NCBI GenBank assembly: GCA_049999805.1
Contig: JBNGIO010005827.1
Coordinates: 62,001 to 113,725 of the forward strand
Source: Folioceros fuciformis
Lineage: Eukaryota
Direction of reading: 5' to 3'
DNA: 51,725 nt
Part shown: in pieces, positions 16,393 through 45,307 of the stretch
Position numbering within the stretch: position 1 is the stretch's first letter
Layout: each line of letters starts with the position of its first letter
Made by a program: the position numbers and the translations under genes
Notes under the pieces: model-generated
The model's input: the letters and a program-made list of their open reading frames with translations, nothing else
Database searches by the model: none
Told to the model about the DNA's origin: nothing

Positions 16393-19300
16393 ATGGTCGC
16401 AGTGTGGGAACCGGATTCATTGTGGACCCAACAAAGTGGTGTGTGTACAGGCGTTCTACGAGGAGCTCCCGCCCACTGCATTGCCCAGGATTCCGCCCCG
16501 GACAAACGACCAAGCCTCCATGTTCAGCAGTGTAAGGAGCGTAGCACTCCCACTCCCGCTGAAATCTGCGGTGGGGACGGATTATCCAGCGATGGTCGTC
16601 GCCAGGAGCAGGAGTTTTTTCTGCATCCTACAGTGTGCTGGGATAACAGACGAGGTAAGAAGACATCCCGTTCGCCTGACTTCCGGCGTAAAGGGTCCGG
16701 CGAGGTGCTCTGGTTGAACAACTCTGCGCAGCCAGCTTGGTTGGATGAGTCTCTGTGTGCTTCGGATATACAGATGGATCACGGTGCCTCTACTCCTAAT
16801 TTGAGCGGTTGCGGCAAGCCTGATGCAGAAAGGCGTGCAGGAGCCGAATTGGCGGCCACGGCCATAGCCGTGAGCACATTATGTCAGCAAGGGAAGCTTA
16901 CTGAGGCCGTCGAAGCCCTGGAATTTCTGGTGCAGACAGACGGTAGTATTTCTCAGTACATGCTTCATACTGTGCTGAAACAGTGCATAGTAGAGAAGGA
17001 TGTGGTTGTTGGGCGACGAGTTCATCATCTAGCTATCAAACTTGGGTACGAGTCAACTACGTACTTGGGGAACCATATCTTGCGCATGTATGCATGTGCA
17101 GGTAGATTACGAGAGGCAATGGATGTGTTCACCAGGGTCGGCAAACCAGACGTGTTCATGTGGGTTTCCATAATCTCTGCACACGCTAAACATGGGAAAC
17201 CTTATGAGGCCGTACAACTGTACCATGACTTCCGTGCCTCAGGTGTGAAGTCTAATTCTCATATCTTTGTAGCTGCCCTTAAAGCTTGCACATGTGCCTC
17301 GGACTTGGAATCTGGCCGGAAAGTTCACTCTGATTTGTTTCTCAGTGGCATTCCTCCCAACTTGTTTGTCGGCAACTGCTTAGTAGGACTGTATGCAAAA
17401 TGTGGTGTATTAGAAGATGCACGCCAGGTTTTTGAGAGCTTGGCCATTAAGGATTCAGTCACTTGGACCACCCTTATATCTGGTTATGCAAATCATGGGT
17501 TTGGTGAAAAGGCTCTTGTTCTGCATGGAGAAATGAAGAAGGGGGGCATGATTTTGGATAACCCTGTTACCTTGTCTTGCCTTTTGAAGGCTTGCGCAAG
17601 CACTCGTGACTTGGAGAAGGGCAGGCAGCTTCACTCACAGATTATGGCTGGAGGACAGCTGGATAGTCTACTGGTAGCGACATCCCTGGTGGACATGTAT
17701 GCAAAATGTGGTGAACTAAGAGATGCACGCGAGGTTTTTGACAGCGTAAGAAAAAAGGATGTGGTGACGTGGACGGCCCTTATAGCTGGCTATGCAAATA
17801 ATGGGCTCGGTCATGAGGCACTTGCTCTGTATGGACAAATGGAGCAAGAGGGTCTGATTATGGGTAATCATATTACTTATTCTTGCCTTCTGAAGGCCTG
17901 TGCAAGTACTGGTGCCCTACAGAAGGGCAGGGAGTTGCACTCCCAGATTGTTGAAAGAGAACAGCTCCACGATGTACGGGTGGGCACCTGCCTTGTGGAC
18001 ATGTATGTAAAATGTAGCGACCTGGATGAGGCACGCAGGGTTTTTGATGGTTTGGCGATGAAGAATGTGGCAACATGGACGGCTCTGATAGCTGGCTATG
18101 CACAGCAAGGGTTCTGTCAAGAGGCACTTGTTCTGTACGGACAAATGGAGCAAGAGGATCTGATTCTGGCTGACTCTGTTACATTTTCTTGCCTTTTGAA
18201 GGCCTGTGCTAGTGCTGGGGCGTTACAAGAGGGCAGGCAGCTGCACTCACTGATTGTGGAAAGAGGGCAGCTGAATCACGCATGGGTGAGCACTTGCCTG
18301 GTAGACATGTACGCAAAATGTGGCGAACTCGAAGATGCTCGCGGGGTTTTCAACAGTTTGGCCACAAAAGATGTGGCGACATGGACAGCCCTGATAGCTG
18401 GGTATGTACAGCAAGGGCTCTGTAAAGAGGCGCTTGTTCTGTATGGTCAGATGGAGGAGGAGGGCTTGATTGTTGCTGACAGTGTAACATTTGCTTGCCT
18501 TCTGAAGGCCTGTTCAAGCGCTGGTGCCTTGCAAGAGGGCAGGCGGCTGCACTCCCAGATCGTTGAGAAAGGTGAGCTGGAGAGAGACATGCAGGTGGGC
18601 ACCTGCCTCGTAGACATGTATGGAAAATGTGGCGAAGTAGAAGAAGCACGCAGGGTCTTTGACAATCTGGCCGCAAAAGATGTGGCGACATGGACAGCCA
18701 TGATAGCTGGATATGCTCGAAAAGGCGTCTTGACAGAGGCGCTGGTTCTATATCGAGAAATGGAAGAGGAGAGCCTGATTCTTGCTGACTCTGTAACTTT
18801 TGCTTGCCTTCTGAACGCCTGTGCCAGTGCTGGTGCCTTACAAGAGGGCAGACAGCTGCACTCACGGATTGTGGGTAGAGTAGAGCTAGAAAGGGACATA
18901 CTGGTGGGCAACTGTCTGGTGGATATGTATGCAAAGTGTGGCAAACTGGAAGATGCACGGAGGGTTTTTGACAGTTTGGTCAGAAAAGATGTGGTGACAT
19001 GGAATGCTCTGATAGCTGGGTACGGTTCCTGTGATGAAGGTTACAATGCAGTAGCCTGTTTTGACGAGATGGTAGTTGCTGGTATTCAGCCTGACGAAGC
19101 TACTTTTACTTGCCTTTTAGCAGCATGTGGCCATGAGGGACTGGTAACGGAAGGTCGGAAGCATTTCGATTCCATGGTTGAGCAGCATGGCATCACACCT
19201 ACGATTCAGCATTACAACTGCCTGGTTGATCTTCTTGCACGTGCAGGCCATTTAGATGACGCAGAAAATACGTTATTCTCTTGTGAGAGGCAAGACGATG

Positions 19301-19905
19301 TTGTAGGGTTGATGTCTTTGCTACATGCCTGCAAAAGTCACGGGGATATAGAAAGGGCAACTCGGTGTTTTGAAACCATTGTGAAACTGGACCCTCAGGG
19401 GGCTTCCGCATATGTGCTCATGGCAAATGTCTACGCAGATGCAGGTATGTGGGCAGATGTAGAAAGGATTGAAAAAAGGAGGACATTAGCAGGAGCTAGG
19501 AAGAAACCTGCAGTGGCAGGCATTGAGGTAGATGAACAGGTCCATACGTTTGTGGTGGGAGAACACAGAGAAGATCTCTCAATGAGGGTCGAGACCTTGA
19601 ATGCACGGCTGAAGGAAGAAGGGGGCCATGTACCACACACCAAGCTGGTGTTGAAGCAACTTCCCGAGAATGAAAAGGAAGATGCGCTTTGCGGCCATGC
19701 TGAGAAGCTAGCGTTGGCGTATGGTCTCTTGAATACTCCAATCGGCACGCCTCTGCTGGTAACGAAGAATCTGCGAATGTGCAGTGACTGCCACACGTCC
19801 ACTGAGATCATGTCTAGGGTTGAGAAGAGAGACATTGTTGTCAGGGATGGATACCGTGTGCATCGATTTGCAGCTGGTTGCTGCAGTTGCAGGCGTCGAC
19901 CATGA
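16393..19905 (+). CDS. PLS-class PPR protein with N-terminal PDF (OSB-like) motif and C-terminal DYW:KP domain ending RRP; putative U-to-C editing factor (copy 1, 1170 aa)
   Basis: Intact ORF with 7 P-L-S triplets including P2-L2-S2, then E1/E2, KKPAVAGIEV, LCGHAEKLA...LRMCSDCH and the terminus CSCRRRP. Confidence 0.95.
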   Translation: MVAVWEPDSLWTQQSGVCTGVLRGAPAHCIAQDSAPDKRPSLHVQQCKERSTPTPAEICGGDGLSSDGRRQEQEFFLHPTVCWDNRRGKKTSRSPDFRRKGSGEVLWLNNSAQPAWLDESLCASDIQMDHGASTPNLSGCGKPDAERRAGAELAATAIAVSTLCQQGKLTEAVEALEFLVQTDGSISQYMLHTVLKQCIVEKDVVVGRRVHHLAIKLGYESTTYLGNHILRMYACAGRLREAMDVFTRVGKPDVFMWVSIISAHAKHGKPYEAVQLYHDFRASGVKSNSHIFVAALKACTCASDLESGRKVHSDLFLSGIPPNLFVGNCLVGLYAKCGVLEDARQVFESLAIKDSVTWTTLISGYANHGFGEKALVLHGEMKKGGMILDNPVTLSCLLKACASTRDLEKGRQLHSQIMAGGQLDSLLVATSLVDMYAKCGELRDAREVFDSVRKKDVVTWTALIAGYANNGLGHEALALYGQMEQEGLIMGNHITYSCLLKACASTGALQKGRELHSQIVEREQLHDVRVGTCLVDMYVKCSDLDEARRVFDGLAMKNVATWTALIAGYAQQGFCQEALVLYGQMEQEDLILADSVTFSCLLKACASAGALQEGRQLHSLIVERGQLNHAWVSTCLVDMYAKCGELEDARGVFNSLATKDVATWTALIAGYVQQGLCKEALVLYGQMEEEGLIVADSVTFACLLKACSSAGALQEGRRLHSQIVEKGELERDMQVGTCLVDMYGKCGEVEEARRVFDNLAAKDVATWTAMIAGYARKGVLTEALVLYREMEEESLILADSVTFACLLNACASAGALQEGRQLHSRIVGRVELERDILVGNCLVDMYAKCGKLEDARRVFDSLVRKDVVTWNALIAGYGSCDEGYNAVACFDEMVVAGIQPDEATFTCLLAACGHEGLVTEGRKHFDSMVEQHGITPTIQHYNCLVDLLARAGHLDDAENTLFSCERQDDVVGLMSLLHACKSHGDIERATRCFETIVKLDPQGASAYVLMANVYADAGMWADVERIEKRRTLAGARKKPAVAGIEVDEQVHTFVVGEHREDLSMRVETLNARLKEEGGHVPHTKLVLKQLPENEKEDALCGHAEKLALAYGLLNTPIGTPLLVTKNLRMCSDCHTSTEIMSRVEKRDIVVRDGYRVHRFAAGCCSCRRRP

Positions 19906-20236: not shown

Positions 20237-23125
20237 ATGGGCACAGCATTGCGGCCAGATTTGGCAGGGTCGCGACCAATGGCTGGGTGTACGGGAATTG
20301 GAGGAGGAGATCCCGCTCTCCTCGCTTTTGGGAGACAGGCAACGCTTAAGGATGATGCCTTGAGCTGCAGTGGTGTCAGGAACCTGGCACTACCGAGGGA
20401 ATCCATGGCTGAGGAAGTATCACCCGCCGACGGTCGTCGGCAAGAGCTGGAGCCCTTGTGTCGACAGTCTGTTCCGGACCCTATCATGTGGTGGGAGAAC
20501 AGACGACGTAAGAAGAGCTCCCGTTCGCCTGACCTACGGCGTAGAGGGTCCGGCGAGGGCCTCTGGTTCGACAACTCTTTAAATCCCGCTTGGGTGGATG
20601 CGCAGCTCGGTGCTCGGGATACGCATGTTGGTCTTGCTGCTTCTCTTTCCAAGTCTGAGCCTCAGAGGCCCGCTGGATCAAAAGTGAGCGTAACAGCTGT
20701 GACCGTGAGCACGTTGTGTCAGCAAGGGAAGCTGAGCGAGGCCGTTGTAGCCCTGGAAGAGCTGGTGGAGACAGACTTTCCTAATCCCCAGGCTTTTTTG
20801 TTTACTGTTCTGAAACTGTGTGCAGCAAAGAAGGATTTGGTTCTGGGACGACGAGTTCATGATCTCACTGTCAAACTTGGGTTTGAGACGAATACATACT
20901 TGGGAAACCACATTCTGCGCATGTATGCCTGTGGAGGCAGGTTACACGAGGCCATGGATGTGTTCACCAAAGTGGGGAAGCGCGATGTTTTCATGTGGGG
21001 CTCCATGATGACTGCATACGCCAAACATGGGAAGCCTAATGAGGCTATACAACTGTACCACGAGATGTGCAGCTCTGGGGTAAAGCCGGATGCTCACATC
21101 TTTGTAGCTGCCCTTCAAGCTTGTGCCCTTGCCATGGACATAGAATCTGGCACAAAAGTGCACTTTGATGTTTTGCAGAGTGGTATTCCTCCTAACTTGT
21201 TTGTTGGCAGCTGCCTGGTAGACATGTATGCGAAATGTGGGGGACTGGAAGCTGCACGCCAGGTGTTTGACAGCTTGGCCACAAAGGATGTGGTGACCTG
21301 GACGGCCTTGATAGCTGGATATGCAAATCATGGGCCCGGTCAAGAGGCTCTTGTATTGTATGAACAAATGGAGCAAGAGGGCCTGATTTTGGATAACCCT
21401 GTGACTTTTGCTTGCCTTCTGAAGGCTTGTGCAAGCGCCAATGACCTACAAACTGGCAGACAGTTGCACTCACAGATTTTGGGAAGAGGAAAGCTACAAA
21501 GTGACATATTGGTCTCCAACTCCTTATTGGACATGTATGCAAAATGTGGCGAACTAGAACTTGCACGCCGGGTATTTGACAGCTTGGACTCAAAGGATGT
21601 AGTGACATGGACAGCCCTTATAGCTGGATATACAAATCATGGGTTCGGTGAAGAGGCGCTTGTTCTGTATGGGCGTATGGAGCAAGAGGGCCTGATCTTG
21701 GGTAACCATGTTACTTTCGCTTGCCTTTTGAAGGCCTGTGCTAGCACACGTGCCTTGTGCAAGGGCAGGGAGCTGCACTCACAGATTGTGGGAAGACGTC
21801 TGTTAGAGAACGTGGTGGTGGCCAACTGCCTGGTGGACATGTATATAAAATGCGGTGAGCTAGAAGATGCACGCAGGGTCTTTGACAGCTTGACCAGAAA
21901 GGATGTGGTGACATGGAATGCCCTGATAGCTGGGTTTGCACAGCAAGGGCTCTGTCATGAGGCGCTTGCCCTATACGGCGAAATGGAGCGGGGCGGGCTT
22001 ATTTTGGCCAATCATATTACTTTTACGTGCCTTTTGAATGCCTGTGCAAGCGCTGGTGCCATGCACGAGGGCAGGCAGCTGCACTTGCAGATTGTGGAAA
22101 GAGGAGAGCTAGAACGTGATATATTGGTGGGGAACTGCCTAGTGGACATGTATGCCAAGTGTGGGGAACTGGAAGAAGCACGCAGGGTTTTCGACAGTTT
22201 ATCTGCCAAGGATGTGGTGACATGGAATGCCCTGATAGATGGGTATGGTACTTCTGATCAAGGTCACAACGCCTTAGCCTGTTTTGAGGAGATGATAGTT
22301 GCTGGTGTAGAGCCTAATGATGCTACTTTCACATGCCTTTTAGTAGCATGCGCTCACACAGGCCTGGTAAATGAGGGTCGGAAACTCTTCGGGTTCATGG
22401 TTGAACACCATGGGATCAAACCCACTCTTCAGCATCACAACTGCATGATTGATCTTCTAGGGCGTGCAGGCCATTTAGATGAGGCAGAGAGCATTCTATT
22501 ATCATGTGACAGCCGGAACAACGTTGTGGGGTTGACGTCTCTCCTGAATTCCTGCAAAAGTCATGGGGATATAGAGAGGGCAACTAGGAGTTTTGAATGT
22601 CTTGTTACACTGGACCCTCAGCGGGCATCCTCGTATGTGCTTTTGGCCAATGTCTATGCAGATGCAGGGAGGTGGACAGATGTAGACAGGATTGAAAGAC
22701 AGAGATTGGCAGCAGGAGCTAGGAAGAAACCGGCTGTGGCGGGCATTGAGGTGAAGGGGCAGGTACATACATTTGTGGTGGGAGAACATAGAGATATCTC
22801 GCCCAAGGTAGACAGCATGAATGTACATCTGAATGAGGAGGGGGGCCATGTACCCCATACAAAGTTGGTGTTGAAGCCATTGTCTGAGAAGGAAAAGGAA
22901 GATGCGCTTTGCGGGCATGCTGAGAAGCTAGCTCTAGCGTACGGTCTCCTAAATACTCCGAGTGGCACTCCTCTGCTGGTAACAAAGAACCTACGAATGT
23001 GCGGTGACTGCCACAGTTCGACTGCAATCATGTCAAAGGTTGAAAAGAGAGAGATTGTGGTGAGGGATGCGTACCGTGTGCATCGGTTTACAGCTGGTTC
23101 TTGCAGCTGTAATGGTCGGCCATGA
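20237..23125 (+). CDS. PDF-PLS PPR-DYW:KP (GRP-type) protein (copy 2, 962 aa from first ATG)
   Basis: The ATG at 20237 aligns with the paralog starts; the track ORF opens at a TTG at 20195. 5 PLS triplets; KKPAVAGIEV, HAEKLA, CGDCH, terminus CSCNGRP. Confidence 0.95.
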   Translation: MGTALRPDLAGSRPMAGCTGIGGGDPALLAFGRQATLKDDALSCSGVRNLALPRESMAEEVSPADGRRQELEPLCRQSVPDPIMWWENRRRKKSSRSPDLRRRGSGEGLWFDNSLNPAWVDAQLGARDTHVGLAASLSKSEPQRPAGSKVSVTAVTVSTLCQQGKLSEAVVALEELVETDFPNPQAFLFTVLKLCAAKKDLVLGRRVHDLTVKLGFETNTYLGNHILRMYACGGRLHEAMDVFTKVGKRDVFMWGSMMTAYAKHGKPNEAIQLYHEMCSSGVKPDAHIFVAALQACALAMDIESGTKVHFDVLQSGIPPNLFVGSCLVDMYAKCGGLEAARQVFDSLATKDVVTWTALIAGYANHGPGQEALVLYEQMEQEGLILDNPVTFACLLKACASANDLQTGRQLHSQILGRGKLQSDILVSNSLLDMYAKCGELELARRVFDSLDSKDVVTWTALIAGYTNHGFGEEALVLYGRMEQEGLILGNHVTFACLLKACASTRALCKGRELHSQIVGRRLLENVVVANCLVDMYIKCGELEDARRVFDSLTRKDVVTWNALIAGFAQQGLCHEALALYGEMERGGLILANHITFTCLLNACASAGAMHEGRQLHLQIVERGELERDILVGNCLVDMYAKCGELEEARRVFDSLSAKDVVTWNALIDGYGTSDQGHNALACFEEMIVAGVEPNDATFTCLLVACAHTGLVNEGRKLFGFMVEHHGIKPTLQHHNCMIDLLGRAGHLDEAESILLSCDSRNNVVGLTSLLNSCKSHGDIERATRSFECLVTLDPQRASSYVLLANVYADAGRWTDVDRIERQRLAAGARKKPAVAGIEVKGQVHTFVVGEHRDISPKVDSMNVHLNEEGGHVPHTKLVLKPLSEKEKEDALCGHAEKLALAYGLLNTPSGTPLLVTKNLRMCGDCHSSTAIMSKVEKREIVVRDAYRVHRFTAGSCSCNGRP

Positions 23126-23637: not shown

Positions 23638-23891
23638 GTACGACTCTATGAAGTAGCCCAGGCAACATGGATACAAAGTGTACGACTCTATCAAGTAGCC
23701 TAGGCAACATAGATACAAAGTATACGACTCTATGAAGTAGCCCAGGCAACATGGATACAAAGTGTACGACTCTANNNNNNNNNNCTCTATGAAGTAGCCC
23801 AGGCAACATGGATACAAAGTGTACGACTCTATCAAGTAGCCTAGGCAACATAGATACAAAGTGTATGACTCTATGAAGTAGCCGGCAAACA
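23638..23891 (+). repeat. 42-bp minisatellite with alternating A/B variants (small gap inside)
   Basis: GTACGACTCTATGAAGTAGCCCAGGCAACATGGATACAAAGT alternates with ...ATCAAGTAGCCTAGGCAACATAG... Confidence 0.9.
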
Positions 23892-27252: not shown

Positions 27253-30200
27253 TGCAGGTTCGATAGATAGGGGTAACTCCCGTGCATCGAAACCCAGTGC
27301 AGTCAGAAAACTCTTGAGTAAGCAGAACAATGCTGATGGGAATTGACCGCTTGGGGAAGTACAAACGAGGGACTCACCTACGTATTCTCTCCTGGAATGT
27401 GAGAGGGTTAGGCGATTGGTCGAAATCAGCGTCTAAATGCCGAAGGCTGCAGCACTTTCTACAAGGAGAGTTCGATTGGGATGTGGTATGTATTCAGGAA
27501 CACAAATTGTCGGCCGAGCACATTCAGCGAATCAAGAAGATATTTCTAACAGGTCGAACAGTGTGGGGATGAGCAAGATCTGCAGACGAAAGAGACAATA
27601 ACAACTACGGAGAAGGTGAGTCGGCCACGAGAGGAGGCGTCTCCATTACAATCCACCCAGAGCAAACACAAAATGTGTTGGAGACAGGACAGGATGAATC
27701 CGGGAGATTTGTTTGGGTGGTGTTGCAGATCCTCAAGGCCCCATGGGCATCTGCAATGTCTATGCTCCTAATGAGGCTTCGGAGAGGAGTATACTGTGGG
27801 GGAGGCTTGGTGAACATCTAAATGATCATATACCATGGCTGTTGGCGGGGGACTTCAATTTTGTCAAAAGGCGAGAGAACATACAAGGGTCGAGCGAGGT
27901 GGATATTCGGAGGGTACCTCTATCGTGGCAAGAACTAAGGGACACCAGTCTGAATGTGCAAGACCCTTGGCTGGCTCTGCCAGCGCATTGTCAGCAAGCC
28001 TCTCTCAAGCTCAGTTGGTCCAATCAGCAGCTAGCAGCTTATGGGGCTCGAAGACTGGATAGGTTCTATGTCCCCGTTGGGTGGCTACCATTTGTGCAAG
28101 ATTATTGTATTTTGGCTGGTATAGTGCTTTCAGACCACCATCCTATCAACTTGACCCTGTAGCTATCCCCCGAAGACCTTCGGCACAAAAGGGACAAGAG
28201 AGTTTTTCGGATGAGTACGTCTGTTCTAGCGGAAGAAGGGGTGTCTGAGCGCGTCAAGGAGCTATGGCAAGGAATAGAGCAAGGAAAAGAGTCGGCTGTG
28301 CAACGGCTCATGAACGCGAACAACGAAGCCACCACCTTCTTGAGGAAGCTGGGCGCGAAGCGCAAAAGAGACAAAGCTCGGATTGAAGACTTTTTGCGGG
28401 AGGATTTGGGGTACATCCGAAGAATGGGGGAAGAGCGTGCGCTGACTGGGGAAGAGGAAAGCCGACTCCGGGAAATTCAATGCGACCTGGCAAAGCTTGA
28501 AGAGGACAAAGCTAGGGGATGGTACAAACGTGCTAAGCTGAAATGGGTGCAAGAAGGAGACTGCCCCTCTAAGTTTTTCTTCGACAAGGTGGCAGCGAAT
28601 CGACATAAGTCAAGAATACCTGCTCTTCCCGACGCACAGGGTAACAGGCAAGACTCCCTCAATGGTTTGAAAAAACTGATCACATGCTTCTACGTAGGAA
28701 TTTTTGCAAGTCTTGGAAAACTGGCAGGCTGGGAGGATCTTTGGAGCTCAGCATATGGGCAGTTACCTGCTAAAGTGTCAGAGGAGCAACGAAGTGTTCT
28801 TGACCAACCTATTACTGCTGCGGAGGTGGCTTAAGCGCTGAAGGAGATGCCGATGAACAAATCTCCAAGGCATGACGGAATCCCCCCTGAATTTTTGGCT
28901 TGGGGATGGGAGTTTATGAGTCCACTCTTTATGGAGGCAGTCAACACGATCTGGGAGGAAGGTAGTATGGGCCCGTGGTTTAACCTGGGCCTCATCTCCC
29001 TTCTACCTAAACAGGATGCTAGCCTCTCAATTGCTAATTGGCGTCCCATCACTTTGCTTACAACCACTTATAAAGTGATTGCCAAGGTCTTAGAAAATAG
29101 GCTCAAGCCATTTCTGGACAAGTGGTTGGAGGTGGAGCACCGGGGCTTCGTCCAGAACAGGTGTATTCTTGACAACTTGTTGCTGATGCGTGAGGCTAAG
29201 TACAATGCTCTAGTCCAGCAGTGTTCATTTCCTTACATTTCTATAAGGCTTATGACTCTGTTGAATGACACTTCCTATGGAGGTGTATGCGAAGCTTTGG
29301 GTTTGGCAACAACTTCTGCAGGTGGATTGTAATTTTGTGTGAGGATGCAGGCGCTATGGTCTCTGTCAACGGCTCCTTTACCGAAAGGTTTGGTATTACG
29401 CGTTCGGTGCGGCAAGGATGCCCATTGGCCCCATTCTTATTCATCATTGTCATTGAGTTTCTCTTGCGAGCAGTCAAGCAGGATTCAAGGATTGAAGGCA
29501 TTCAGAATACCGATGGCTCGCAGTTGTGTATCTCATCTTTTGCTGACAACACCATGCTCTTCTCATCGGCAGATATGAACTCCTTAACAGCCCTACTCTC
29601 TCAGGTACAGATTTTTGGGCAGCTAATCAGGATGCAATGTGAATTGGAGTAAGACCAGGATGATGTGCATTAACCTATAGGGGGAACCGACCGCATGTAT
29701 CAGGCACATAGAGCGGGTCAAACTCGGCTCATCACACAAATACCTGGGCTTGCCGTTCCAGGAAGAGGATGAGAATGCGGAGATTGGTAAATTTGTTTGT
29801 CTTCGATTCATCCGGAAGGCAACCAACTTACGACTTTTGGAACTTAGTCTGGCAGGCAGAATTGTTGTCATTAATCATATTTTGACAGCGCCCCTGTGGT
29901 ATTATTTGTTCTTGTGGGATCCTAACAAGGCGGATCTGAGACGATTGCAACAGATAATTTCCAACTTCCTATGGACCAAGTCTAAGGAGCTGCTCTCTTC
30001 TTTCCATAAGGTGGCGTGGCATCATATTATTCAGTGCAAGCGCTTGGGAGGTTTGGGGTTGGTTGACCCCACGAGCAAAGTGAAGATCCTACATGCGCAA
30101 TGGGTGCTGAAGGCAGCTGGACCAACGGGATACCCTTGGAAACGCTGGTTAACTCAACACTTGCAGCTTTCTTAAGCGGTCGCCCGGGGGCGGAGGTTTA

Positions 30201-35363: not shown

Positions 35364-37937
35364 TCACGGTCTACCCTTGCAACTGCAACAACCAGCTGTG
35401 AATCTATGTACGCGGTACGCATCCCTCACCACAATGTCCCTCATTTCAATCCTTGACATGATTGCAGTGGAAGTGTGGCAGTCACTGCACATGCGGAGAT
35501 TCTTCGTTACGAGCAGAGGTGTGCCGCTCGGGGTATTCAAGAGGCCGTACGCCAGAGCTAGCTTCTCAGCATGCCCACAGAGCGCATCTTCCTTTTCCTC
35601 CTCAGACAATGGCTTCAACACCAGTTGTGTGTGTGGCACGTGGGCCCCTTCCTCCGTCAGACGTGCGTTCACACTCTCTACCTTGAGAGAAATATCCTCC
35701 CTGTTTTCTCCCACCACAAACGTATGTATTTCATCCTCTATCTCGATGCCTGCCACTGCAGGTTTCTTCTTAGCTGCTGCTGTCATTCTCTGTCTCTCAA
35801 TCCTCTCTACGTCTGTCCACCTCCCAGCATCTGCATACCCTTTGGCCATGAGCACATATGCAGATGCACACTGACCATCAAGTTTAACGAGACTTTCAAA
35901 ACAACGGGTCGCCCTCTCCATATCCCCGTGACTTGTGCACGCATTCAGGAACGACGTCAACCCCACAACATTGTTTTCACTCTCGCACGATAATAGCATG
36001 CTCTCTGCCTCATCTAAATGGCCTGCACGCCCAAGTAGATCAATCATACAGTTGTAATGCTGAGTAGTGGGTTTCATGCCATGCTGTTCAACCATAACAT
36101 TGAAGTGCTTCCGGCCCTCATTCACCAGTCCCTCGTGCCCGCATGCCACAAAGAGGCAAGTAAACGTAGTGTCATCGGGCTGAATACCAGCCACCAACAT
36201 CTCCTCATAACAAGCTAATGCTTTCCCACCTCCATCACAACTACCATAACCAGCTATCAGGGCATTCCATGCCACAACATCCCTAGTGGCCAAGCTGTCG
36301 AAGACCCGGCGTGCCTCTTCCATTTCGCCACATTTTGCATACATGTCCACCAGACCAGTGCCCACCAGTGCGTTATCTAACTGACCTCTTTCCACAATCC
36401 GTGAGTGGAGCTGCCTGCCCTTTTGCAAGGCACCAGAACCAGCACAGGCCTTCAAAAGGCAAGCATAAGTAACATGGTTACCCAAAATCAGGCCCTCTTG
36501 CTCCATTTGTCTGTAGACGGCCAGCGCCTCTTGATCGAGGCCTTGGTTTGCATATCCTGCTATAAGGGCAGTCCAAATCACCACATCCTTACAGGCCAAG
36601 CTGTCAAAAACCATGCGCGCCTCTTCCATTTTGCCACATTTCGCATACATGTCCACCAGACATGTGCGAATCAGTGTGTTATCCAGTTCTCTTCTTTCCA
36701 CGATCCTTGAGTGCAGCTGCCTGCCCTTCTGTAAATCACCAGCGCTCGCACAGGCCTTCAGAAGGTAAGAAACAGTAACAGCATTAGCTAAAATTCGACC
36801 TTCCTTCCCCATTCGTTCATACAGTACAAAAACCTCATCACTAAGCCCACGATTTGCATAACCAGCCATGAGAGCATTCCAAGTCACCACATTTTTTGTG
36901 GTCAAGCTGTCAAATACACGCCGTGCATCTTCAAGTTGGCCACATTTTGCATACATGTCCACCAGGCAGCTGCCAAGAAACAAGTTGAGAGGAATCCCAG
37001 AGTGCAAGACATCATGGTGCACTTTCCTGCCAGATTCGAGGTCGGCGGCAAATGCGCAAGCTTGAAGCGCAGCTACAAAGACGTGAGCATCCGGCTTCAC
37101 CCCTGACCCACGCATCTCGTGGTACAGTCGTATGGCCTCATTAGGTTTCCCATGCTTAGCATAAACAGAGATGATGGAAAACCACATGAAGGCATCTGGT
37201 TTGCCCACCCTGGTGAACACATCCACGGCCAAGTGCAACTCGCCTGCACCTGCATACATCCGCAGCAGATGGTTCCCCAAGTACGTATTCGACTCGTACC
37301 CCACATCGATAATGAGACGATGAACCCGTCGCCCGACAGCCAGATTCTTCTTAGCCGCACACAGCTTCAGTACCGCATAAAACAGAGACTGAGAAACAGG
37401 GCAGTCCCCGTACGCCAGAAATTCCAGGGCGCCGACTGCCTCGCTGAGCTTCCCTAGATCACATAACGTGATCACGGTTTCCGGAGTTACAACCATGTTC
37501 GATCCAGCAGGCCTGCAAGGCTCGGGCTTACCCGAAAGGCTGCACTCGGACGTAGACGCACCATGCCCCATCTGCCTGTCCATAGCAACCAGCTGCTCAT
37601 CCACCCAAACTGGATTAGAGGAGTTGTCTAACCAGAGGACCTCACCAGACCCCTCACGGCGGAAGTCAGGCGAACGGGAGCTCTTCTTGTCTCGCCTGTT
37701 ATCCCACCACATGGTAGGGTCAAGGAAAAGGGGCCGAGGATCGTCGCTACATAATGCCCCCCTAGCCATGTATTTCCTCCGCAGTGCTGAGTTCATCACC
37801 CTGCTCCACCTCGAGGCTTCGTTGCTCGCCAGCTGCTGCCTGCTGGAAGTGTGGCGTGCGGGAGCTCCTGGTAGACTCCCCGCACACACACCAATTGGAT
37901 GGGTCCGCGACGGATCCGGTTGCCATACCGTGGACAT
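35364..37937 (-). CDS. PDF-PLS PPR-DYW:KP (GRP-type) protein (copy 3, 857 aa)
   Basis: Intact ORF; 4 PLS triplets; KKPAVAGIEI, HAEKLA, CSDCH, terminus CSCKGRP. Confidence 0.95.
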   Translation of the reverse strand: MSTVWQPDPSRTHPIGVCAGSLPGAPARHTSSRQQLASNEASRWSRVMNSALRRKYMARGALCSDDPRPLFLDPTMWWDNRRDKKSSRSPDFRREGSGEVLWLDNSSNPVWVDEQLVAMDRQMGHGASTSECSLSGKPEPCRPAGSNMVVTPETVITLCDLGKLSEAVGALEFLAYGDCPVSQSLFYAVLKLCAAKKNLAVGRRVHRLIIDVGYESNTYLGNHLLRMYAGAGELHLAVDVFTRVGKPDAFMWFSIISVYAKHGKPNEAIRLYHEMRGSGVKPDAHVFVAALQACAFAADLESGRKVHHDVLHSGIPLNLFLGSCLVDMYAKCGQLEDARRVFDSLTTKNVVTWNALMAGYANRGLSDEVFVLYERMGKEGRILANAVTVSYLLKACASAGDLQKGRQLHSRIVERRELDNTLIRTCLVDMYAKCGKMEEARMVFDSLACKDVVIWTALIAGYANQGLDQEALAVYRQMEQEGLILGNHVTYACLLKACAGSGALQKGRQLHSRIVERGQLDNALVGTGLVDMYAKCGEMEEARRVFDSLATRDVVAWNALIAGYGSCDGGGKALACYEEMLVAGIQPDDTTFTCLFVACGHEGLVNEGRKHFNVMVEQHGMKPTTQHYNCMIDLLGRAGHLDEAESMLLSCESENNVVGLTSFLNACTSHGDMERATRCFESLVKLDGQCASAYVLMAKGYADAGRWTDVERIERQRMTAAAKKKPAVAGIEIEDEIHTFVVGENREDISLKVESVNARLTEEGAHVPHTQLVLKPLSEEEKEDALCGHAEKLALAYGLLNTPSGTPLLVTKNLRMCSDCHTSTAIMSRIEMRDIVVRDAYRVHRFTAGCCSCKGRP

Positions 37938-38611
37938 GTCACCGGAACCGCTCCGGAAGGCGAGACGCAGTGCGGGCAGGATTCCTAGCTATGTGTTGAT
38001 CACCATCGATAAAAGAGCATCAGCCACACACTCCTCATCGCAAACGCAGCGTGCCCCACACCATCTACCCATCACCAACGGCATCTTCTGGCATCCAACA
38101 AGCACATCGACGTCCTCAAATCTACACAAACCAGCCAAATTGTGACACCGCCTCATCGGCACCTCATGCCCGGCCCCAGACTCATAGCAAAGATCTATCG
38201 TCACCTTCTGCCAAGCAAGTGCCGCTGACGATTTGGACTCTCGGGAAGTTCCCCTGCGGACTCCAGGTTCATATCGACTGGTGCGCGCGTTCATGTCTCG
38301 GACGCACCAAAGCAAGTCGTTGAAAGTCGGAGGAATTCCGTTTCAGCGTTTTAAAACGTGATGGAAAGAAACGTGCGAGTACGAACTATGGCTCCAGGTT
38401 CGAGAAATCCGTTCAGACACACTCTGCCGCTGCCGGACGGCTTGGTTCCATGGTGGTTACGGCCCATGTGCGTGGGACCTCGTGGGTTCGATGGGTTGCC
38501 ACGGCCTTGCAGTGCGACGAGTGGCAGGCCTATACATTCTTCGGGAATTGATCTGGAAAAAGCTTCCGAGAGCGGTGCATGCCACATGACCACACTATGG
38601 CAACTTGTGAC

Positions 38612-41600
38612 ATGGCCACAATATGGCAACCGGATCCGTCTTGGACCCAACCAACTGGTGGGTGTGCAGGGAGTCGACGAGGAGCTCGCGCACGCCTCAC
38701 TTTTAGCAGGCAGCCGCTGGCGAACTGGAGCAGGGTGACGAATTTTGCGCTGCGGAGGAGATACATGGCTGGGGGGGCATTATGTGGCGACGATCGTCGG
38801 CAGGAGCTGGAGCGCTTGTGGCGAGAGTTTTTCCTTGACCCTACCTTGTGGTGGGATAACAGGCGAGATAAGAAGAGCTCCCGTTCCCCTGACTTCATCC
38901 GGGAGGGATCTGGTGAAGTCCTTTGGTTAGACAACTCTTCCAATCCAGTTTGGGTGGATGAGCAGCTTGTTGCTATGGACAGGCGGATGGGCCATGGTGC
39001 ATCTACGTCGAAGTCGAGCTGTTCGGGGAAGGCCGAGCCTAGCAGGCGTGCAGGGTACCCTATGGGCGTAACTCCTGTAACCGTGAGCGTGTTATGTGAG
39101 CAAGGGAAGCTCGGTGAGGCTGTAGCCACTTTGGAATCTCTGGCGCAAGGGGGCTCTCCTGTTTCTCAATCTCTGCTGTATGCTGTGCTGAAACTGTGCG
39201 CCAGGAAGAAGAATCTAGCTGTAGGGCGACGAGTTCATGATCTCATTATCAATTTGGGATACGAGTCAAATACGTACCTGGGGAATCATATTCTGCGGAT
39301 GTATGCAGGTTTTGGTGAGTTACAATTGGCCATGGATGTGTTCACCAGGGTGGGCAAACCAGATGCCTTCATGTGGTTTTCCATTATCTCTGCGCATGCT
39401 AAGCATGGCGAACCTAGTGAAGCCATACGACTGTACCACTCGATGCATAGGTCAGGGGTGAAGCCGGATGGTCACGTCTTTGTAGCTGCCCTTCAAGCTT
39501 GTGCATTTGCCGCCGACCTCGAATCTGGCAGGAAAGTGCATTCTGATTTCTTGCGCAGTGGAATTCCTTCTAACTTGTTTCTTGGCAGCTGCTTGGTTGA
39601 CATGTATGCAAAGTGTGGTGAACTGAAGTATGCACGGCAGATATTTGACAGCTTGCCCACAAAAAATGTCGTTACATGGAATTCTCTCATTGCTGGGTAT
39701 GCAAATCAAAGGCTCTTTCAAGAGGCCTTTGTGCTGTATGGAGAAATGGAGCAAAAGGGCCTGGTTCTGGCTGATCATGTTACTTTCGCTTGCCTTCTGA
39801 AGGCCTGCGCAAGCTCTTGTGCTATAGTAGAGGGAAGGCAGCTGCACTCACAGATTTTGGAAAGAGGGCATCTAGAAAATGGGGTTGTGGTGGGCAACTG
39901 CTTGGTGGACATGTATGCGAAATGTGGCGAACTGGAAGTTGCACGCATCGTTTTTGAGAGCTTGGCCACTAAGGATGTCGTGACATGGACCTCCCTTGTA
40001 GCTGCATACGCAAATCATGGGCTTTGTCAAGAAGCTCTCCTTCTTTATGGACGAATGGAGCGAGAGGGCTTGATTTTGGGAAATCATATTACTTTTGCCT
40101 GCCTTCTTAAGGCCTGTGCAAGCGATGGTGCCTTAGAGAAGGGCAGGGAGTTGCACTCACAGATTGTGGAAAGAGGAATGCTCGATAACTTGCTGGTGGG
40201 CAACTGCCTGGTGGACATGTATGCTAAATGTGGCCAACTGGACGATGCACGTGGGGTTTTTGACAGTCTGCCGAGAAAAAATGTGGCGACATGGACGGCT
40301 CTAATTGCTGGCTATGCACAGCAGGGTCTCCCTCAAGAGGCTATTGGCCTGTATGGACAAATGGAGCAAGAGGGGCAGGTTCTAGCTGACAGCGTTGCTC
40401 TTTCTTGCCTTTTGAGGGCGTGTGCAAGTGCCGGTGCCTTGCAAGAGGGCAGGCACCTGCACTCTCAGATTCTGGAAAGTGGGCAGTTGCAAAGTGACAT
40501 GCTGGTGGGGAACTGCTTGATAGACATGTATGCAAAATGTGGCGAACTCGAGGATGCACGCCGGGTCTTCAACAGCTTGGCCTCGAAAGATGTGGTGACA
40601 TGGACGACCCTTGTAGCAGGGTATGCTCAGCAAGGACTCGGTCAGGAGGCGTTAGTTCTGTATCACCGAATGGAGCAGGAGGGGCTGATTCTGGCTGACG
40701 CTGTCACTTTTTCTTGCCTCTTGAGGGTATGTGCAAGTATTGGAGCCTTACAAGAAGGACGGGAACTGCACTCGCAGATTGTGGAAAGAGGACAGTTAGA
40801 CAGTGACATCCAGTTGGGCACTTGCCTGGTGGACATGTATGCGAAATGTGGTGACTTAGAAGATGCACGTCGGACATTTGACAGTTTAGCATCAAGAGAT
40901 GTGGCGACATGGACAGCCCTGATATCTGGCTACGGTACTTGTGATGAAGGGCACAATGCACTTGCTTGTTTTGAGGAGATGTTAGTTGCTGGTGTTCAGC
41001 CTGATGATTCTACTTTTACCTGCGTTTTGGTAGCATGCGCTCATGAGGGACTGGTGACTGAGGGTCGCAAGCACTTCACTGGCATGGAACAGCAGGGCGT
41101 CAAACCTAATATTCAGCATTACAATTGCATGATTGATCTTCTTGCACGAGCAGGCCATTTAGATGAGGCTGAGAACATGTTATTATCTTGTGAGAGCGAA
41201 GGCAATGTCGTGGGATTAACGTCGTTGCTATTTGCCTGCAAAAGTCATGGGGACATAGAGAGGGCAACCCGGTGCTTTGAAAGTCTTGTAAGGCTGGACC
41301 CTCAGGGTGCATCCGCGTATATGCTTATGGCCAATGTGTATGCCGATGGTGGTCGGTGGACAGATGTTGAGAAGATTGAAAGGCAGAGACTGTTAGCAGG
41401 AGCCAGGAAGAAACCTGCGGTGGCAGGCATTGAGGTCGCGAATGAGGTACATACGTTTGTGGTGGGAGAATACAGAGATGATCTCTCTCTTAAGGTAGAG
41501 AGCATGAACGTATGTCTGAAGGGGGTAGGGGGCCACATACCGCAGACAAAGTTGGTCATGAAGCCTCTGTCCGAGAAACAAAAGGAAGATGTTCTTTGCG

Positions 41601-41812
41601 GGCATGCTGAGAAGCTAGCTCTGGCATATGGTCTCTTGAATACTCCTAGTGGCACACGTCTGTTGGTAACGAAGGATTTACGCATGTGCAGCGACTGCCA
41701 CAGCTCCACTGAAATCATGTCAAGGGTTGAAAAGCGACAAATTGTTGTGAGGGATGGCTACCGTGTGCATCGATTCGCAGCTGGGTGTTGCAGTTGTAAG
41801 GGTCGACCATAA
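38612..41812 (+). CDS. PDF-PLS PPR-DYW:KP (GRP-type) protein (copy 4, ~1066 aa; upstream in-frame ATGs at 38579 and 38597)
   Basis: The MATIWQPD start aligns with the paralogs; 6 PLS triplets; KKPAVAGIEV, HAEKLA, CSDCH, terminus CSCKGRP. Confidence 0.95.
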   Translation: MATIWQPDPSWTQPTGGCAGSRRGARARLTFSRQPLANWSRVTNFALRRRYMAGGALCGDDRRQELERLWREFFLDPTLWWDNRRDKKSSRSPDFIREGSGEVLWLDNSSNPVWVDEQLVAMDRRMGHGASTSKSSCSGKAEPSRRAGYPMGVTPVTVSVLCEQGKLGEAVATLESLAQGGSPVSQSLLYAVLKLCARKKNLAVGRRVHDLIINLGYESNTYLGNHILRMYAGFGELQLAMDVFTRVGKPDAFMWFSIISAHAKHGEPSEAIRLYHSMHRSGVKPDGHVFVAALQACAFAADLESGRKVHSDFLRSGIPSNLFLGSCLVDMYAKCGELKYARQIFDSLPTKNVVTWNSLIAGYANQRLFQEAFVLYGEMEQKGLVLADHVTFACLLKACASSCAIVEGRQLHSQILERGHLENGVVVGNCLVDMYAKCGELEVARIVFESLATKDVVTWTSLVAAYANHGLCQEALLLYGRMEREGLILGNHITFACLLKACASDGALEKGRELHSQIVERGMLDNLLVGNCLVDMYAKCGQLDDARGVFDSLPRKNVATWTALIAGYAQQGLPQEAIGLYGQMEQEGQVLADSVALSCLLRACASAGALQEGRHLHSQILESGQLQSDMLVGNCLIDMYAKCGELEDARRVFNSLASKDVVTWTTLVAGYAQQGLGQEALVLYHRMEQEGLILADAVTFSCLLRVCASIGALQEGRELHSQIVERGQLDSDIQLGTCLVDMYAKCGDLEDARRTFDSLASRDVATWTALISGYGTCDEGHNALACFEEMLVAGVQPDDSTFTCVLVACAHEGLVTEGRKHFTGMEQQGVKPNIQHYNCMIDLLARAGHLDEAENMLLSCESEGNVVGLTSLLFACKSHGDIERATRCFESLVRLDPQGASAYMLMANVYADGGRWTDVEKIERQRLLAGARKKPAVAGIEVANEVHTFVVGEYRDDLSLKVESMNVCLKGVGGHIPQTKLVMKPLSEKQKEDVLCGHAEKLALAYGLLNTPSGTRLLVTKDLRMCSDCHSSTEIMSRVEKRQIVVRDGYRVHRFAAGCCSCKGRP

Positions 41813-42713
41813 AATGAAGATTTAAGCTGTAGACTTACAGCATGCATTCGGTACCAGGGAGACCAACGACCTAGATGTCCCGGACAATGTAGTGCAAGTC
41901 GCGCTCACTTCCAAGGGGCCTGACCGTCCAAGACGGTACACGATCTCCAGTGTTCCGGTGTGGGAGTGATATCATGTCTGTCGAGAATTACTTTGAAGTG
42001 CCTTCTGCCCTGTCCTACCAGACCCACTTGACTGCAGGCCACCCGATGGGCTCAATATATGTTGCCGCACCAGTCGTTTGTTGGCCATAGCCAGTACATT
42101 TTGTCCCAGATCTCTCACCTATATCCGAGAGAGCAGGTCTGAAATCTATGGTGGCCTCGGTATGTCTTGGGTCTTCACTCCGCACTTGATACTCAAAGGT
42201 ATGCCAAATGCCCACGCAACTCAAAAATTGGAGCGAAGTGTATGACAGTGGACGCCGATGTTCTTCTGATGGTCCTTACTTTCTGCCATCCAATGCCGTA
42301 AACAGTAGCCAGCGTGACAGTTTCATCGACTGCTCTGCGCATTTCCACTATCCGCTGTGCTTGATCCCTACCACCCTATCTCACCCGCATATGGAAGACC
42401 ACTCTTTTCGAACAGTCTCACTCTTTCAACAATGAAAACTCCACTGGGTTGGTGGGAAGCTCCTAACAAGAAATCGTTTTGCTGCTGGCGAGGAATTTGG
42501 CAATGGGTGTTTATGGGTTTGCCGTTAAGTCTTGGTCATACACTCTAGCTTTTGTGACTTCCTTACATCACGACAGGCTACGTTCCATGGTTGGCGTTGC
42601 CTCTGGACGTACCCAATGTTGCTGTGCAGTTGGCAGGCATCCTGCTGCGGCCATCCCAACAAGGCCTTCACAGTTAATTCTGATTTTCATGTTCCGACAG
42701 CTGTGGCTGTAAC

Positions 42714-45307
42714 ATGTCCGCAGCATGGCAATTGGATCCGTTATGGACCCAACCAGTTCGTGGGTGTACAGGGATTCTCAGAGGAGCTCTCGGTTACCTC
42801 AGTTTAGGGAGGCAACCGCTTGTAATGAACGGAATCGCGAGGTGCAGCAGTGGGAGGAGTCCAGCACCCAGCAGAAAATCCATGGCTGGGGAAGGAGTGC
42901 GCAGCGATTGTCATCGCCAAGACCTAGAGCTCTCGGACCGGCAGTTCTTTCTGTCTCCTGCATGTGGTGGGATAATAGCGGAATTAAGAAGAAGCGCTCT
43001 CGTTCGCTTGACTTCCGTCAGAAGGAGTCCAGTTAGGTGCTCTGGTTAGACGACTCCTCCAAGCCAGCCTGCGTGGATCAGCAGGTCCTTGGTTTGGGTA
43101 TGCAGATGGGTCGAGGGTGCGCTGCTTCCAAGTCAGGCTCTTGCTGTACTCTGAGGGAGGCGGGCCTGCAGAATCCGACTTGGGCGTGTGGCTAGAAACG
43201 TGCGCAAGTTTTGTCAGCAGGGGCAGCTTATGCTAGCTGTCGAACCTCGAGTTTCTGGCGAAGGCGCACTGTTCAATCTCTCAGTCTTTGTTTTATGCCT
43301 TGGTGAAAAGTTGTGCCGCTAAGAAGAACGTGGTTGTCCGGCGATGAGTTCATGATCCCATTTTCAAACTTGGATACGAGTCAAATGCATACTTGGGAAA
43401 CCACATCTTGCGCATGTATGCATGTGGAGGTAGGTTAGAGGGTGCGATGGATGTGTTCCCCAGGGTGGGCAATCCAGATGCGTTCATGTGGTTCTCCACA
43501 ATCTCCGCATATTCTAAACGTGGGAAACCGAATGTGGCCATAAGGCTATACCCTGAGATGTGTAGCTCAGGTGTGTCATGCTCACGTCTTTGTTGCTGCC
43601 CTTCTAGCTTGTGCATTCAACGCCAACTTGGAATCTGGGAGAAAAGTGTACTCTGATATCTTGAACAGTGGCATTCCTCCTAACTTGTTTGTTGGCAACT
43701 GCCGCGCAGGAATGTATGCAAAATGTGGGGAACTGGAAGATGCACGCCAGGGTTTTTGACAGCTTGGCTACAAAGGATGTGGTGACTTGGACAGCCCTGA
43801 TAGTTGGGTATGCACAGAGAGGGCTCAACGATGAGGCGCTTGTTCTGCATGGACAGATGGAAGAAGAGGGCCTAGTTGTGGCTGACTCGGTTACTTTTTC
43901 TTGCCTTTTGAAGGTCTGTGCAATGGCTGGTGCCTTGCAGAAGGGCAGACAACTATATTCACAGATTGTGGAAAGAGGACTGCTGAAAAGTGACTTACAG
44001 GTGGCCACTTGCCTTGTGGTCATGTATGCAAAATGAGGTGAGCTACAAGATGCACACAGGGATTTTGACAGTTTGTCCACGAAATGGTGGTGTCATGGAC
44101 CACGCATATACCTGGTTACAGAAATCATGGACTTTCTCTAGAAGCACTCTTTCTGTTTGGACAATGGAGCAGGATGGCCCGATTTTGACTAATCACGTTA
44201 CTTTTACCTACCTTCTGAAGGCCTGTGCAAGCGCGGGCGCTTTACAGGAGGGAAGGCGGTTGCATTCACAGATTGTTGAAAGAGGAGAGCTAGAAAGTGA
44301 TATACGGGTGGGCAACTGTTTGGTGGGCACATATGCCAAATGTGGGGAACTAGAAGATGGGCGCGGGGTGTTTGACGCCTTGTTAACAAAGGATGTGATG
44401 ACAGGGAATGCTCTCATAGACGGGTATGGTTCTTGTGGTGAAGGTCACAAAGCACTATCCTGTTTCGAGGAGATGATAGCTGCTGGTGTTGAGCCTAATT
44501 CTGCTACTTACGTTCCCGTCGTAGCAGCATGCGGTCACAAGGGATTGGTGAAAGAGGGTTGGAGGTACTTCGATGCCATGGTTGAACAGCATGGCATCGA
44601 ACCTAGTCTTCAGCATCGAAATTGCATGGTTGATCTTCTTGGGTTTGCAGGCTATTTAGATGAGGCAGAAACATGCTTCTGTCGTCGGGTGATAGCCAGA
44701 GCAATGTTGTGGGGTTGACATATTTGCTGAATGCCTCCAAAGGTCAGGGGAGTACAGAGAGGGCGACTCGGTGTTTTGAAAGTCTTGTTGGATTGCATCG
44801 TCAGGGGGCATCCGCATACGTGCTCATGGCCAATGTCTACGCAGATGTAGGGAGGTGGGCAGATGTAGAAAGGATTGAACGACAAAGGATAACAGCAGGA
44901 GCTAGTAAGAGACGGGCAGTGGCAGGCATTGAGGTTAAGGATCAAATACGTTTGTGGTGGGAGAGCATAGAAATGATATCTCGCTCGAGGTCGAGAGCAT
45001 GAACTTATATCTGAAGGAAGAAGGGGGCCACGTACCGCAGACAAATTTGGTGTTGGAGCCATCGACTGAGAAGGAAAAGGAAGATATGCTTTGCGGGCAT
45101 GCTGAGACGCTAACTTTGGCGTGTGGTCTCTCGAATACTCCGAGTGGTACACCCTTGCGGGTAACGAAGAATCTACGCATGTGCAGTGATTGCCATAGTT
45201 CGACCGAAATCATTTCAAGAATTGAAAAGGCAAACATTGTTGTCAGGGATGCGTACCGTGTTCATCGATTCGCAGCGGTGTGTTGCAGTTGTAAGGGTAC
45301 ATCATGA
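42714..45307 (+). pseudogene. PDF-PPR-DYW:KP pseudogene (copy 5)
   Basis: Collinear with the paralogs (MSAAWQLDPLWTQP; MWWDNSGIKKKRSRSLDF; PPR fragments; LCGHAETL...CSDCH...CSCKGTS) but split over many frames, with stops. Confidence 0.9.

Follow-up and report, generated by a model that had tools for sequence, protein, structure and literature searches.

An OSB-type PDF motif ahead of the PPR array in a cluster of candidate PPR-DYW:KP editing factors from Folioceros fuciformis and in PLS-class PPR proteins of other non-seed plants

A stretch of 51,725 nucleotides from Folioceros fuciformis (assembly GCA_049999805.1, contig JBNGIO010005827.1, positions 62,001 to 113,725 of the forward strand), which we call the window and whose positions serve as coordinates throughout, carries at 16.4-45.3 kb a tandem family of five nuclear PPR-DYW:KP paralogs, namely four intact, intronless PLS-class genes and one pseudogene. 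Each copy holds a single motif of ~50-68 amino acids (aa) between the N-terminal leader and the PPR array, and by its sequence this is an OSB-type PDF motif, homologous to the C-terminal repeats with which the organellar OSB proteins of plants bind single-stranded DNA (ssDNA). The combination of a PDF motif with a PPR protein appears to be inherited and not local to this family, as it spans moss, liverwort, lycophytes and ferns and is found with either type of DYW domain. The original prediction, made from the DNA letters alone, had described five copies of the motif in this window, and a six-frame pattern scan agrees with it: a WDNRR/WENRR core lies at 16639, 20492 and 38852 on the plus strand and at 37706 on the minus strand, and a degraded WWDN lies at 42968 on the plus strand. 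The one correction needed concerns copy 3, for which the interval first given (37590-37740) is off frame by one to three bases; the peptide quoted for copy 4 is exactly the translation of its interval (Table 1).

The identity of the motif, which had likewise been proposed at the outset, was established by profile search. A HMMER profile built from the four intact window copies was searched against 1.84 billion representative proteins and gave 550 matches at E<=1e-3, 118 at E<=1e-10 and 14 at E<=1e-30. Among the 150 matches listed, the typical protein is 250-500 aa long and has 1-13 matches to the motif, mostly C-terminal. They include 'protein OSB1, mitochondrial-like' of Populus nigra (E 4.4e-21) and 'organellar single-stranded DNA binding protein 3' of Euphorbia peplus (E 2.9e-17), and a BLASTP comparison of the copy 4 motif with the two C-terminal repeats of each gave 51% and 47% identity to the Populus protein and 46% and 44% to the Euphorbia protein, over 50-56 aa and hence over the whole motif. 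The consensus of a 43-sequence alignment also agrees with the one quoted in the original prediction. The PDF motif has been defined as ~50 aa with a conserved Pro-Asp-Phe (PMC6963530), and the window copies bear this signature, with P-D-F kept in copies 1, 3 and 4, P-D-L in copy 2 and L-D-F in the remnant of copy 5. The PDF motif of OSB1 alone is reported to suffice for ssDNA binding (PMC6963530, PMC4166229), and OSB1 and OSB2 are reported to favour ssDNA over double-stranded DNA or RNA (PMC4166229, PMC6963530). As an observation in its own right, in one protein of 1526 aa (P0047) three PDF matches are followed by a kinesin motor domain, which reflects either a further PDF fusion or gene models that were merged.

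Possession of the motif does not make the window proteins members of the OSB family, and we rejected that assignment. The layout described for OSB proteins is an OB-fold followed by PDF motifs (PMC6963530, PMC4166229, PMC13393729), and both the Populus OSB1-like protein and the Euphorbia OSB3 have a weak N-terminal match to the Pfam SSB family. In the window proteins the PDF is single and N-terminal, upstream of the PPR array, and no OB-fold or SSB match was found by Pfam in copies 1-4 (P0001-P0004) at E<=1, nor, at E<=10, in the ~170 aa at their N-termini. For these N-terminal stretches the only family that Pfam returned was DUF4675, a chance match at E 0.078.

The remainder of each protein is that of an editing factor. 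In all four intact copies Pfam finds, in this order, PPR/PPR_2 repeats (E 1e-62 to 1e-111), an E_motif (1e-13 to 1e-16) and a DYW_deaminase domain (1e-30 to 1e-34), as in PLS-class PPR editing factors. The DYW:KP subtype is described as having a Lys-Pro in place of the Pro-Gly pair, an Ala or Cys after the zinc-binding His and a variable C-terminal triplet (PMC11845758). Copies 1-4 all show K-K-P-A-V-A, G-H-A-E-K, C-(S/G)-D-C-H and an RRP or GRP terminus, in line with the KP-type domains of the original prediction, and they are therefore candidate U-to-C editors by virtue of their class. The domain order is a disordered leader of ~55-70 aa, the single PDF, a disordered linker of ~25-30 aa, 13-22 PPR motifs, the E motif and the DYW:KP domain. 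The motif, the PPR array and the DYW domain share one uninterrupted open reading frame (ORF) in four independent copies of 857-1170 aa.

Structure prediction points to a modular N-terminus. For a 70-residue stretch containing the PDF, AlphaFold2 with a 43-row alignment returned a predicted local distance difference test score (pLDDT) of 90.9, with helices at residues 3-17 and 56-68 and strands at 22-24 and 37-39. A model of the N-terminal 330 residues of copy 4 has pLDDT below 50 at residues 1-55 and 128-149 and of 90-96 at the PDF, residues 59-126, while the PPR helices begin at residue 155 with pLDDT above 95. In these models the PDF folds by itself and is joined to the rest by a flexible tether, behind a disordered leader that in copy 4 is a probable organellar targeting peptide. 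Foldseek found nothing in the PDB at E<=0.001 with the PDF model, a VIA-align structural scan of 48,161 chains gave a best Z of 4.2, and a sequence search of the PDB with the motif gave only matches at E>=0.3, to ~22 residues of the N-termini of CP29-type chlorophyll a/b proteins. No solved relative of the PDF fold was identified, which does not by itself prove a new fold. The part of the motif that resembles CP29 is its C-terminal half (G-x-x-L-W-L...P-x-W-(V/L)-D, E ~0.3), and the likeness was taken as chance.

The motif is under purifying selection, about as constrained as the PPR array, whereas the leader is almost neutral. Pooling Nei-Gojobori counts across the six pairs of intact copies, the ratio of nonsynonymous to synonymous differences (pN/pS) is 0.89 in the leader, 0.35 in the PDF core, 0.57 in the linker, 0.42 in the first PPR repeats and 0.23 in the last 230 residues (E-DYW), and 25 of the 56 columns of the four-copy motif alignment are invariant; the motif is thus better conserved than its flanks, as had been claimed. 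Taken pair by pair, the ratio of nonsynonymous to synonymous substitution rates (dN/dS) of the motif is 0.10-0.29 in five of the six pairs, between paralogs whose dS reaches 0.4-1.2. We also scored the copies at the 17 positions with full or >=90% conservation in the 43-sequence PDF alignment: all 17 are retained in copy 4, 16 in copy 3, 15 in copy 1 and 13 in copy 2.

An N-terminal PDF was also found on PPR proteins outside the window. Ten of the 150 listed PDF matches align to the PPR region of the window proteins, with the PDF N-terminal to it, and eight of these ten have matches to Pfam PPR families. Those named come from Diphasiastrum complanatum (P0116, P0139, P0125; accessions for this species KAJ7558666.1 and KAJ7517631.1), Selaginella moellendorffii (P0122; XP_024517303.1), Ceratopteris richardii (P0120; KAH7429238.1), Adiantum capillus-veneris (P0033, with two PDFs; KAI5061374.1) and Pteridium aquilinum (P0138, P0153), to which P0007, with three PDFs, and P0118 are to be added. 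One of them, P0139, has an E+ motif, a DYW_deaminase domain and a DYW end. The two Pteridium entries are transcriptome ORFs with a 5' untranslated region, and the fusion is therefore transcribed in Pteridium.

A second sample was obtained by searching with copy 3 for the 120 closest PPR homologues and scanning these with the motif profile by hmmsearch. The best identity to copy 3 among them is 57% in local alignment, and those with a named species, mostly Diphasiastrum, reach at most 46%. An N-terminal PDF is present in 22 of the 120 (19 strong matches and 3 weak, partial ones), including 13 of 19 proteins from Diphasiastrum, both proteins from Sphagnum fallax, one of two from Calypogeia fissa, one weak match among 17 from Adiantum and none of seven from Ceratopteris. 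Six PDF-bearing homologues end in DYW, of which five (P0195, P0210, P0216, P0222 and P0274) have HSE and P0299 lacks the HSE pattern; three others are KP-like, P0189 and P0247 with a KP box, HAE and a GRP end, and P0250 with HAE and a non-DYW end. In all, at least seven PDF-PPR proteins end in a canonical DYW with HSE or with a Pfam DYW_deaminase match. The PDF of these other PPR proteins starts anywhere from residue 5 to ~190, often at 24-85. Several of them bear two or three tandem N-terminal PDFs (P0007, P0033, P0191, P0211). A second PDF in P0202 lies in mid-protein, at residues 679-731, and this suggests that tandem genes were fused in the gene model.

In phylogenies of the motif the PDFs of PPR proteins cluster. 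A FastTree phylogeny of 281 PDF domains, to which PPR proteins contribute 39, left out cluster isoforms and domain matches of fewer than 40 profile positions or 25 bits; on it, the label 'PPR-linked' requires 10 changes compared with 37.1 in shuffles, none of 500 shuffles being as low. Two groups stand out. In the first, 26 of 31 tips are PPR-linked (support 85), and the second, with 11 tips and a support of 88, holds the four window copies, the HAE-type homologues P0189, P0247 and P0250, all three PDFs of P0007 and one fragment of 162 aa. An IQ-TREE analysis of 99 rows, comprising the 39 PPR-linked PDFs and 60 random OSB-type ones with one repeat per protein, after 47 rows from non-PPR proteins of less than 250 aa had been dropped for their uncertain architecture, needs four changes of the label as against 31 in shuffles. 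Constraining all 39 PPR-linked PDFs to a single clade gave a likelihood above that of the free quick search, and the constraint was not rejected (approximately unbiased test, p-AU 0.657). These trees are compatible with, and do not prove, one ancient fusion that was inherited by both the PG and the KP lineages.

Within the window, the features of which are collected in Table 1, the spacers between the five paralogs consist of retroelement debris and short assembly gaps. The four intact proteins are 66-75% identical in pairwise comparison, and their lengths rise in steps, from 857 through 962 and 1066 to 1170 aa. The alignment gaps between them in the PPR array are of 102 or 205 residues and correspond to whole P-L-S triplets; this suggests diversification of target length by unequal recombination between repeats. 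Copies 3 and 4 stand with their start codons ~640 bp apart (window 37938-38611) and may share a bidirectional promoter region. Comparison of the upstream DNA of the paralogs by blastn found no similarity, except that the 641-bp intergenic region of copies 3 and 4 matches itself. In copy 5 there is a frameshift within the PDF motif, a stop immediately 3' of it and several further changes of frame. A sequencing run with 63% of the words of the locus yields exact contigs that include intergenic DNA (37692-38312 and 41781-43413), and we read it as DNA and not RNA because its contigs span these stretches; three other runs have solely PPR fragments, 90-95% similar to the locus. Besides the PPR genes, the window holds a copia-type and a LINE-like element, and downstream of copy 5 there is probably a multi-exon gene of the inositol monophosphatase kind.

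Table 1. Features of the PPR-DYW:KP cluster and its surroundings (positions in the 51,725-nucleotide window)
Feature	Positions	Strand	Remarks
Copy 1 (P0001)	16393..19905	+	intact intronless PDF-PLS-PPR-E-DYW:KP gene, 1170 aa; Pfam DYW_deaminase at residues 1078-1167; RRP end
Copy 1 PDF core	16603..16755	+	5-aa deletion in first helix; first Trp of the WW pair changed from W to C
Copy 2 (P0002)	20237..23125	+	intact, 962 aa from first ATG; frame open from 20195 (976 aa)
Copy 2 PDF	20444..20608	+	most diverged intact copy: WWENRR, P-D-L for P-D-F
Copy 3 (P0003)	35364..37937	-	intact, 857 aa; head-to-head with copy 4
Copy 3 PDF	37587..37739	-	8 residues of first helix missing
Copy 4 (P0004)	38612..41812	+	intact; 1066 aa if started at the Met in register with the other copies, 1077 aa for the ORF from ATG 38579
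Copy 4 leader	38612..38785	+	residues 1-58; Arg/Ser-rich, predicted disordered, near-neutral (leader pN/pS pooled over copies)
Copy 4 PDF domain as folded	38786..38989	+	residues 59-126; predicted as a helix, then two or three short strands, then a helix
Copy 4 PDF motif	38801..38968	+	best preserved copy
Copy 4 linker	38990..39073	+	residues 127-154, predicted disordered
Copy 4 PPR array (PLS-type) and E motif	39074..41530	+	Pfam; helical repeats from residue 155 in model
Copy 4 DYW:KP deaminase-like domain	41531..41803	+	Pfam DYW_deaminase at residues 985-1075 of P0004, E 1.8e-30; KP pair, HAE, CSDCH, GRP end
Copy 5	~42714..45307	+	pseudogene: frameshifts and stops; end still ...CSDCH...CCSCKGTS; readable only by frame hopping
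Copy 5 PDF remnant	42920..43090	+	degraded; frameshift before WWDN, stop after L-D-F, the equivalent of P-D-F
Degenerate copia-type long terminal repeat (LTR) retrotransposon	9884-13756	-	separate ORF fragments: gag (Retrotran_gag_2/3, DUF4219), zinc knuckle, Pol beta-barrel, integrase core
Fragmented non-LTR (long interspersed nuclear element, LINE-like) element	27743-30601	+	lies between copies 2 and 3; two neighbouring ORFs match RVT_1
Probable inositol monophosphatase-like gene	~47167-48541	+	three ORF pieces match Pfam inositol monophosphatase profile positions 101-130, 180-214 and 216-263
Assembly gap (N run)	8549-8648		100 nucleotides
Assembly gap (N run)	8963-9062		100 nucleotides
Assembly gap (N run)	14777-14876		100 nucleotides
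Assembly gap (N run)	23775-23784		10 nucleotides; just past copy 2

We propose that the PDF is a general accessory helper of the PLS editing factors of non-seed plants, which binds single strands at the 5' edge of the RNA element and is not a determinant of U-to-C editing, and we hold this to be probable though by no means assured. First, the leader would target the protein to the organelle and then be cleaved, so that in the mature factor the PDF would come first among the folded modules, flexibly tethered to the rest. PPR arrays bind RNA in parallel, with the N-terminal repeats on the 5' nucleotides and the DYW domain and editing site just 3' of the array; this orientation would place the PDF at the 5' border of the RNA element that the array recognises, where it would use an aromatic and basic surface to make sequence-independent contacts to single-stranded nucleic acid. 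Such contacts could raise the affinity or the on-rate of the factor, or they could hold the upstream RNA unfolded.

Several points weigh against this proposal. The mechanism is our inference. Given the reported preference of OSB1 and OSB2 for ssDNA over RNA (PMC4166229), a role in RNA contact assumes that the specificity of the motif has shifted or broadened. The motif selection figures come from 47 codons and six pairs that are not independent, and the sixth pair, copies 1 and 2, has a PDF dN/dS of 0.89, based on only 8 synonymous differences. Part of the motif is eroded within the family, with copy 2 changed at 4 of the 17 near-invariant positions and helix 1 incomplete in copies 1 and 3. 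The test of a single origin used 56 columns and a group that was defined after the first tree had been seen. None of the 20 seed-plant PPR proteins among the 120 homologues has a PDF (Cryptomeria 4, 'Gb_' models, which we take to be Ginkgo, 14, Papaver 1 and Macadamia 1), and just these 20 proteins represent seed plants. Lastly, when the motif by itself, or an N-terminal query of 250 aa, was put to word-index protein searches, no motif matches came back; we attribute this to limits of the index and not to absence of the motif, because the exhaustive HMMER search contradicts it.

The foremost alternative is that the PDF has kept a preference for ssDNA and anchors the factor to transcription bubbles, R-loops or replication intermediates in the nucleoid, which would couple editing to transcription. 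The sole activity reported for a PDF is ssDNA binding, preferred over RNA (PMC6963530, PMC4166229), copies 3 and 4 retain the near-invariant aromatic and basic positions, and the flexible linker predicted in the models would permit contacts with DNA and RNA at once. Nevertheless, the binding of a lone PDF may be weak when the OSB scaffold is missing, OSB2 is reported to be tetrameric (PMC6963530), and sequence does not discriminate between binding of DNA and of RNA. We regard such a DNA anchor as unlikely, if worth keeping in mind.

A helper role on RNA, as we prefer, could also be placed in a wider evolutionary frame. The PDF may be an ancestral cis-acting helper of the PLS editing factors of land plants that lack MORF/RIP proteins, acquired once from an OSB-like gene, at an early stage of land-plant evolution, which supplies the sequence-independent single-strand binding or the RNA unfolding that PLS arrays need and which became dispensable and was lost once trans-acting MORF proteins arose in seed plants. 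This scenario is speculative and, in our view, unlikely. If it were true, engineered PPR base editors, whether C-to-U or U-to-C, could be improved by fitting them with a PDF.

The confinement of PDF-PPR proteins, in the sample seen, to lineages without MORF helpers can be read in another way, namely that the PDF is a protein-interaction module that mediates dimerisation or recruits partners, such as other editing factors or OSB-type proteins, and does not bind nucleic acid. A small helix-hairpin-helix unit with a conserved hydrophobic and aromatic face would suit that purpose, as would the tandem arrays of two or three PDFs on P0033, P0007, P0191 and P0211; yet the published function of the PDF is binding of nucleic acid (PMC6963530, PMC4166229), and we see only a small chance that interaction with proteins is its main task.

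The signs of erosion listed above raise the further question of whether the PDF is a vestige, functional in an ancestral PLS-class PPR protein and now carried along, decaying slowly, in the KP family. The truncation of helix 1 in copies 1 and 3, the four near-invariant changes of copy 2, including that of PDF to PDL, and the high dN/dS between copies 1 and 2 would all fit with this. In contrast, the pooled pN/pS of the motif is as low as that of the PPR array and five of the six pairs give low ratios, the core is retained in four paralogs that have diverged widely at synonymous sites, and KP-type relatives elsewhere keep the PDF (P0189, P0247, P0250). Slow decay is accordingly an improbable account of the motif.

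Two opposite extremes, in which the motif is part of the import signal and is removed with the transit peptide, or instead redirects the deaminase-like domain to ssDNA, can be given next to no weight: the motif does lie near the N-terminus (starting at residues ~60-80 here, and at 5-7 in the database models P0122, P0118 and P0033), but its confident predicted fold, its conservation and its homology to a domain that functions in mature OSBs set it apart from transit peptides, and the disordered, fast-evolving leader upstream of it already suits a targeting role; nothing observed speaks for DNA editing.

PPR-DYW proteins are the factors that provide both specificity and catalysis in plant organelle RNA editing, and they are being made into programmable C-to-U and U-to-C editors. 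An ancient-looking and widespread fusion of the PDF to such proteins is a testable candidate for a part in the function of PLS editing factors in lineages without MORF, and the PDF offers itself as an accessory module for trials with synthetic editors. Such a fusion also widens the repertoire of the PDF beyond genome maintenance.

The original prediction had presented the fusion as a possibly undescribed architecture of putative U-to-C editing proteins. Our full-text literature searches found no description of a PDF-PPR fusion, although an earlier mention may exist, for example in the supplementary tables of PMC13393729 or PMC13386178; the terms 'OSB' and 'single-stranded' are absent from the accessible text of the latter, a 2026 kingdom-wide survey of editing factors. 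A PDF on editing factors would have been missed because Pfam has no PDF model and because a recent survey of OSB proteins also demanded an OB-fold (PMC13393729). The fusion, a known domain on a known enzyme family, therefore appears to be undescribed in print, and the claim of novelty survives to that extent; it does not extend to the proteins themselves, since the same fusion already lies unannotated in public proteomes. The tie to U-to-C editors, or to this family, is not supported. Many PLS-class PPR proteins of a moss, a liverwort, lycophytes and ferns carry an N-terminal PDF, and because canonical-DYW proteins are among them, nothing links the motif to the U-to-C reaction itself.

Compared with known systems, the window proteins share with OSB1-OSB4 the ~50-aa PDF motif and the same near-invariant W/F/P/D/R/K positions. 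In contrast to those proteins, they lack the SSB-like OB-fold, their PDF is single and N-terminal where OSBs have one to five C-terminal ones, and a PPR array and a DYW:KP domain follow it. Furthermore, in the sequences inspected, PPR-linked PDFs are one residue longer than OSB PDFs between LW(L/I) and P-x-W. With PPR-DYW:KP proteins, including the synthetic KP1-KP6 designs, the window proteins have in common the PLS array, the E motif, the KP pair, HAE in place of HSE, CxDCH and a C-terminus other than DYW (PMC11845758). They differ from them in having an N-terminal PDF, of which the accessible text of PMC11845758 makes no mention.

A further parallel is with the PDF-PLS-PPR proteins of non-seed plants, all of whose database entries are labelled as hypothetical or generic PPR proteins. 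These have the same order of leader, PDF and PLS-class PPR array, and their PDFs group with the window copies in the tree. They are 26-48% identical to the first 330 residues of copy 4, and, unlike the window genes, many end at a canonical DYW or at the E motif and some have two or three PDFs. Finally, the PDF resembles the MORF/RIP helpers and the RRM-PPR fusions (PMC13386178) in being, on our reading, a generic helper module for a sequence-specific PLS-class PPR protein. The PDF is nonetheless a domain unrelated to either, and whereas MORF proteins act in trans and are reported to be restricted to seed plants (PMC13386178), the PDF is part of the PPR protein itself and, in the sample seen, occurs in this form only in non-seed plants.

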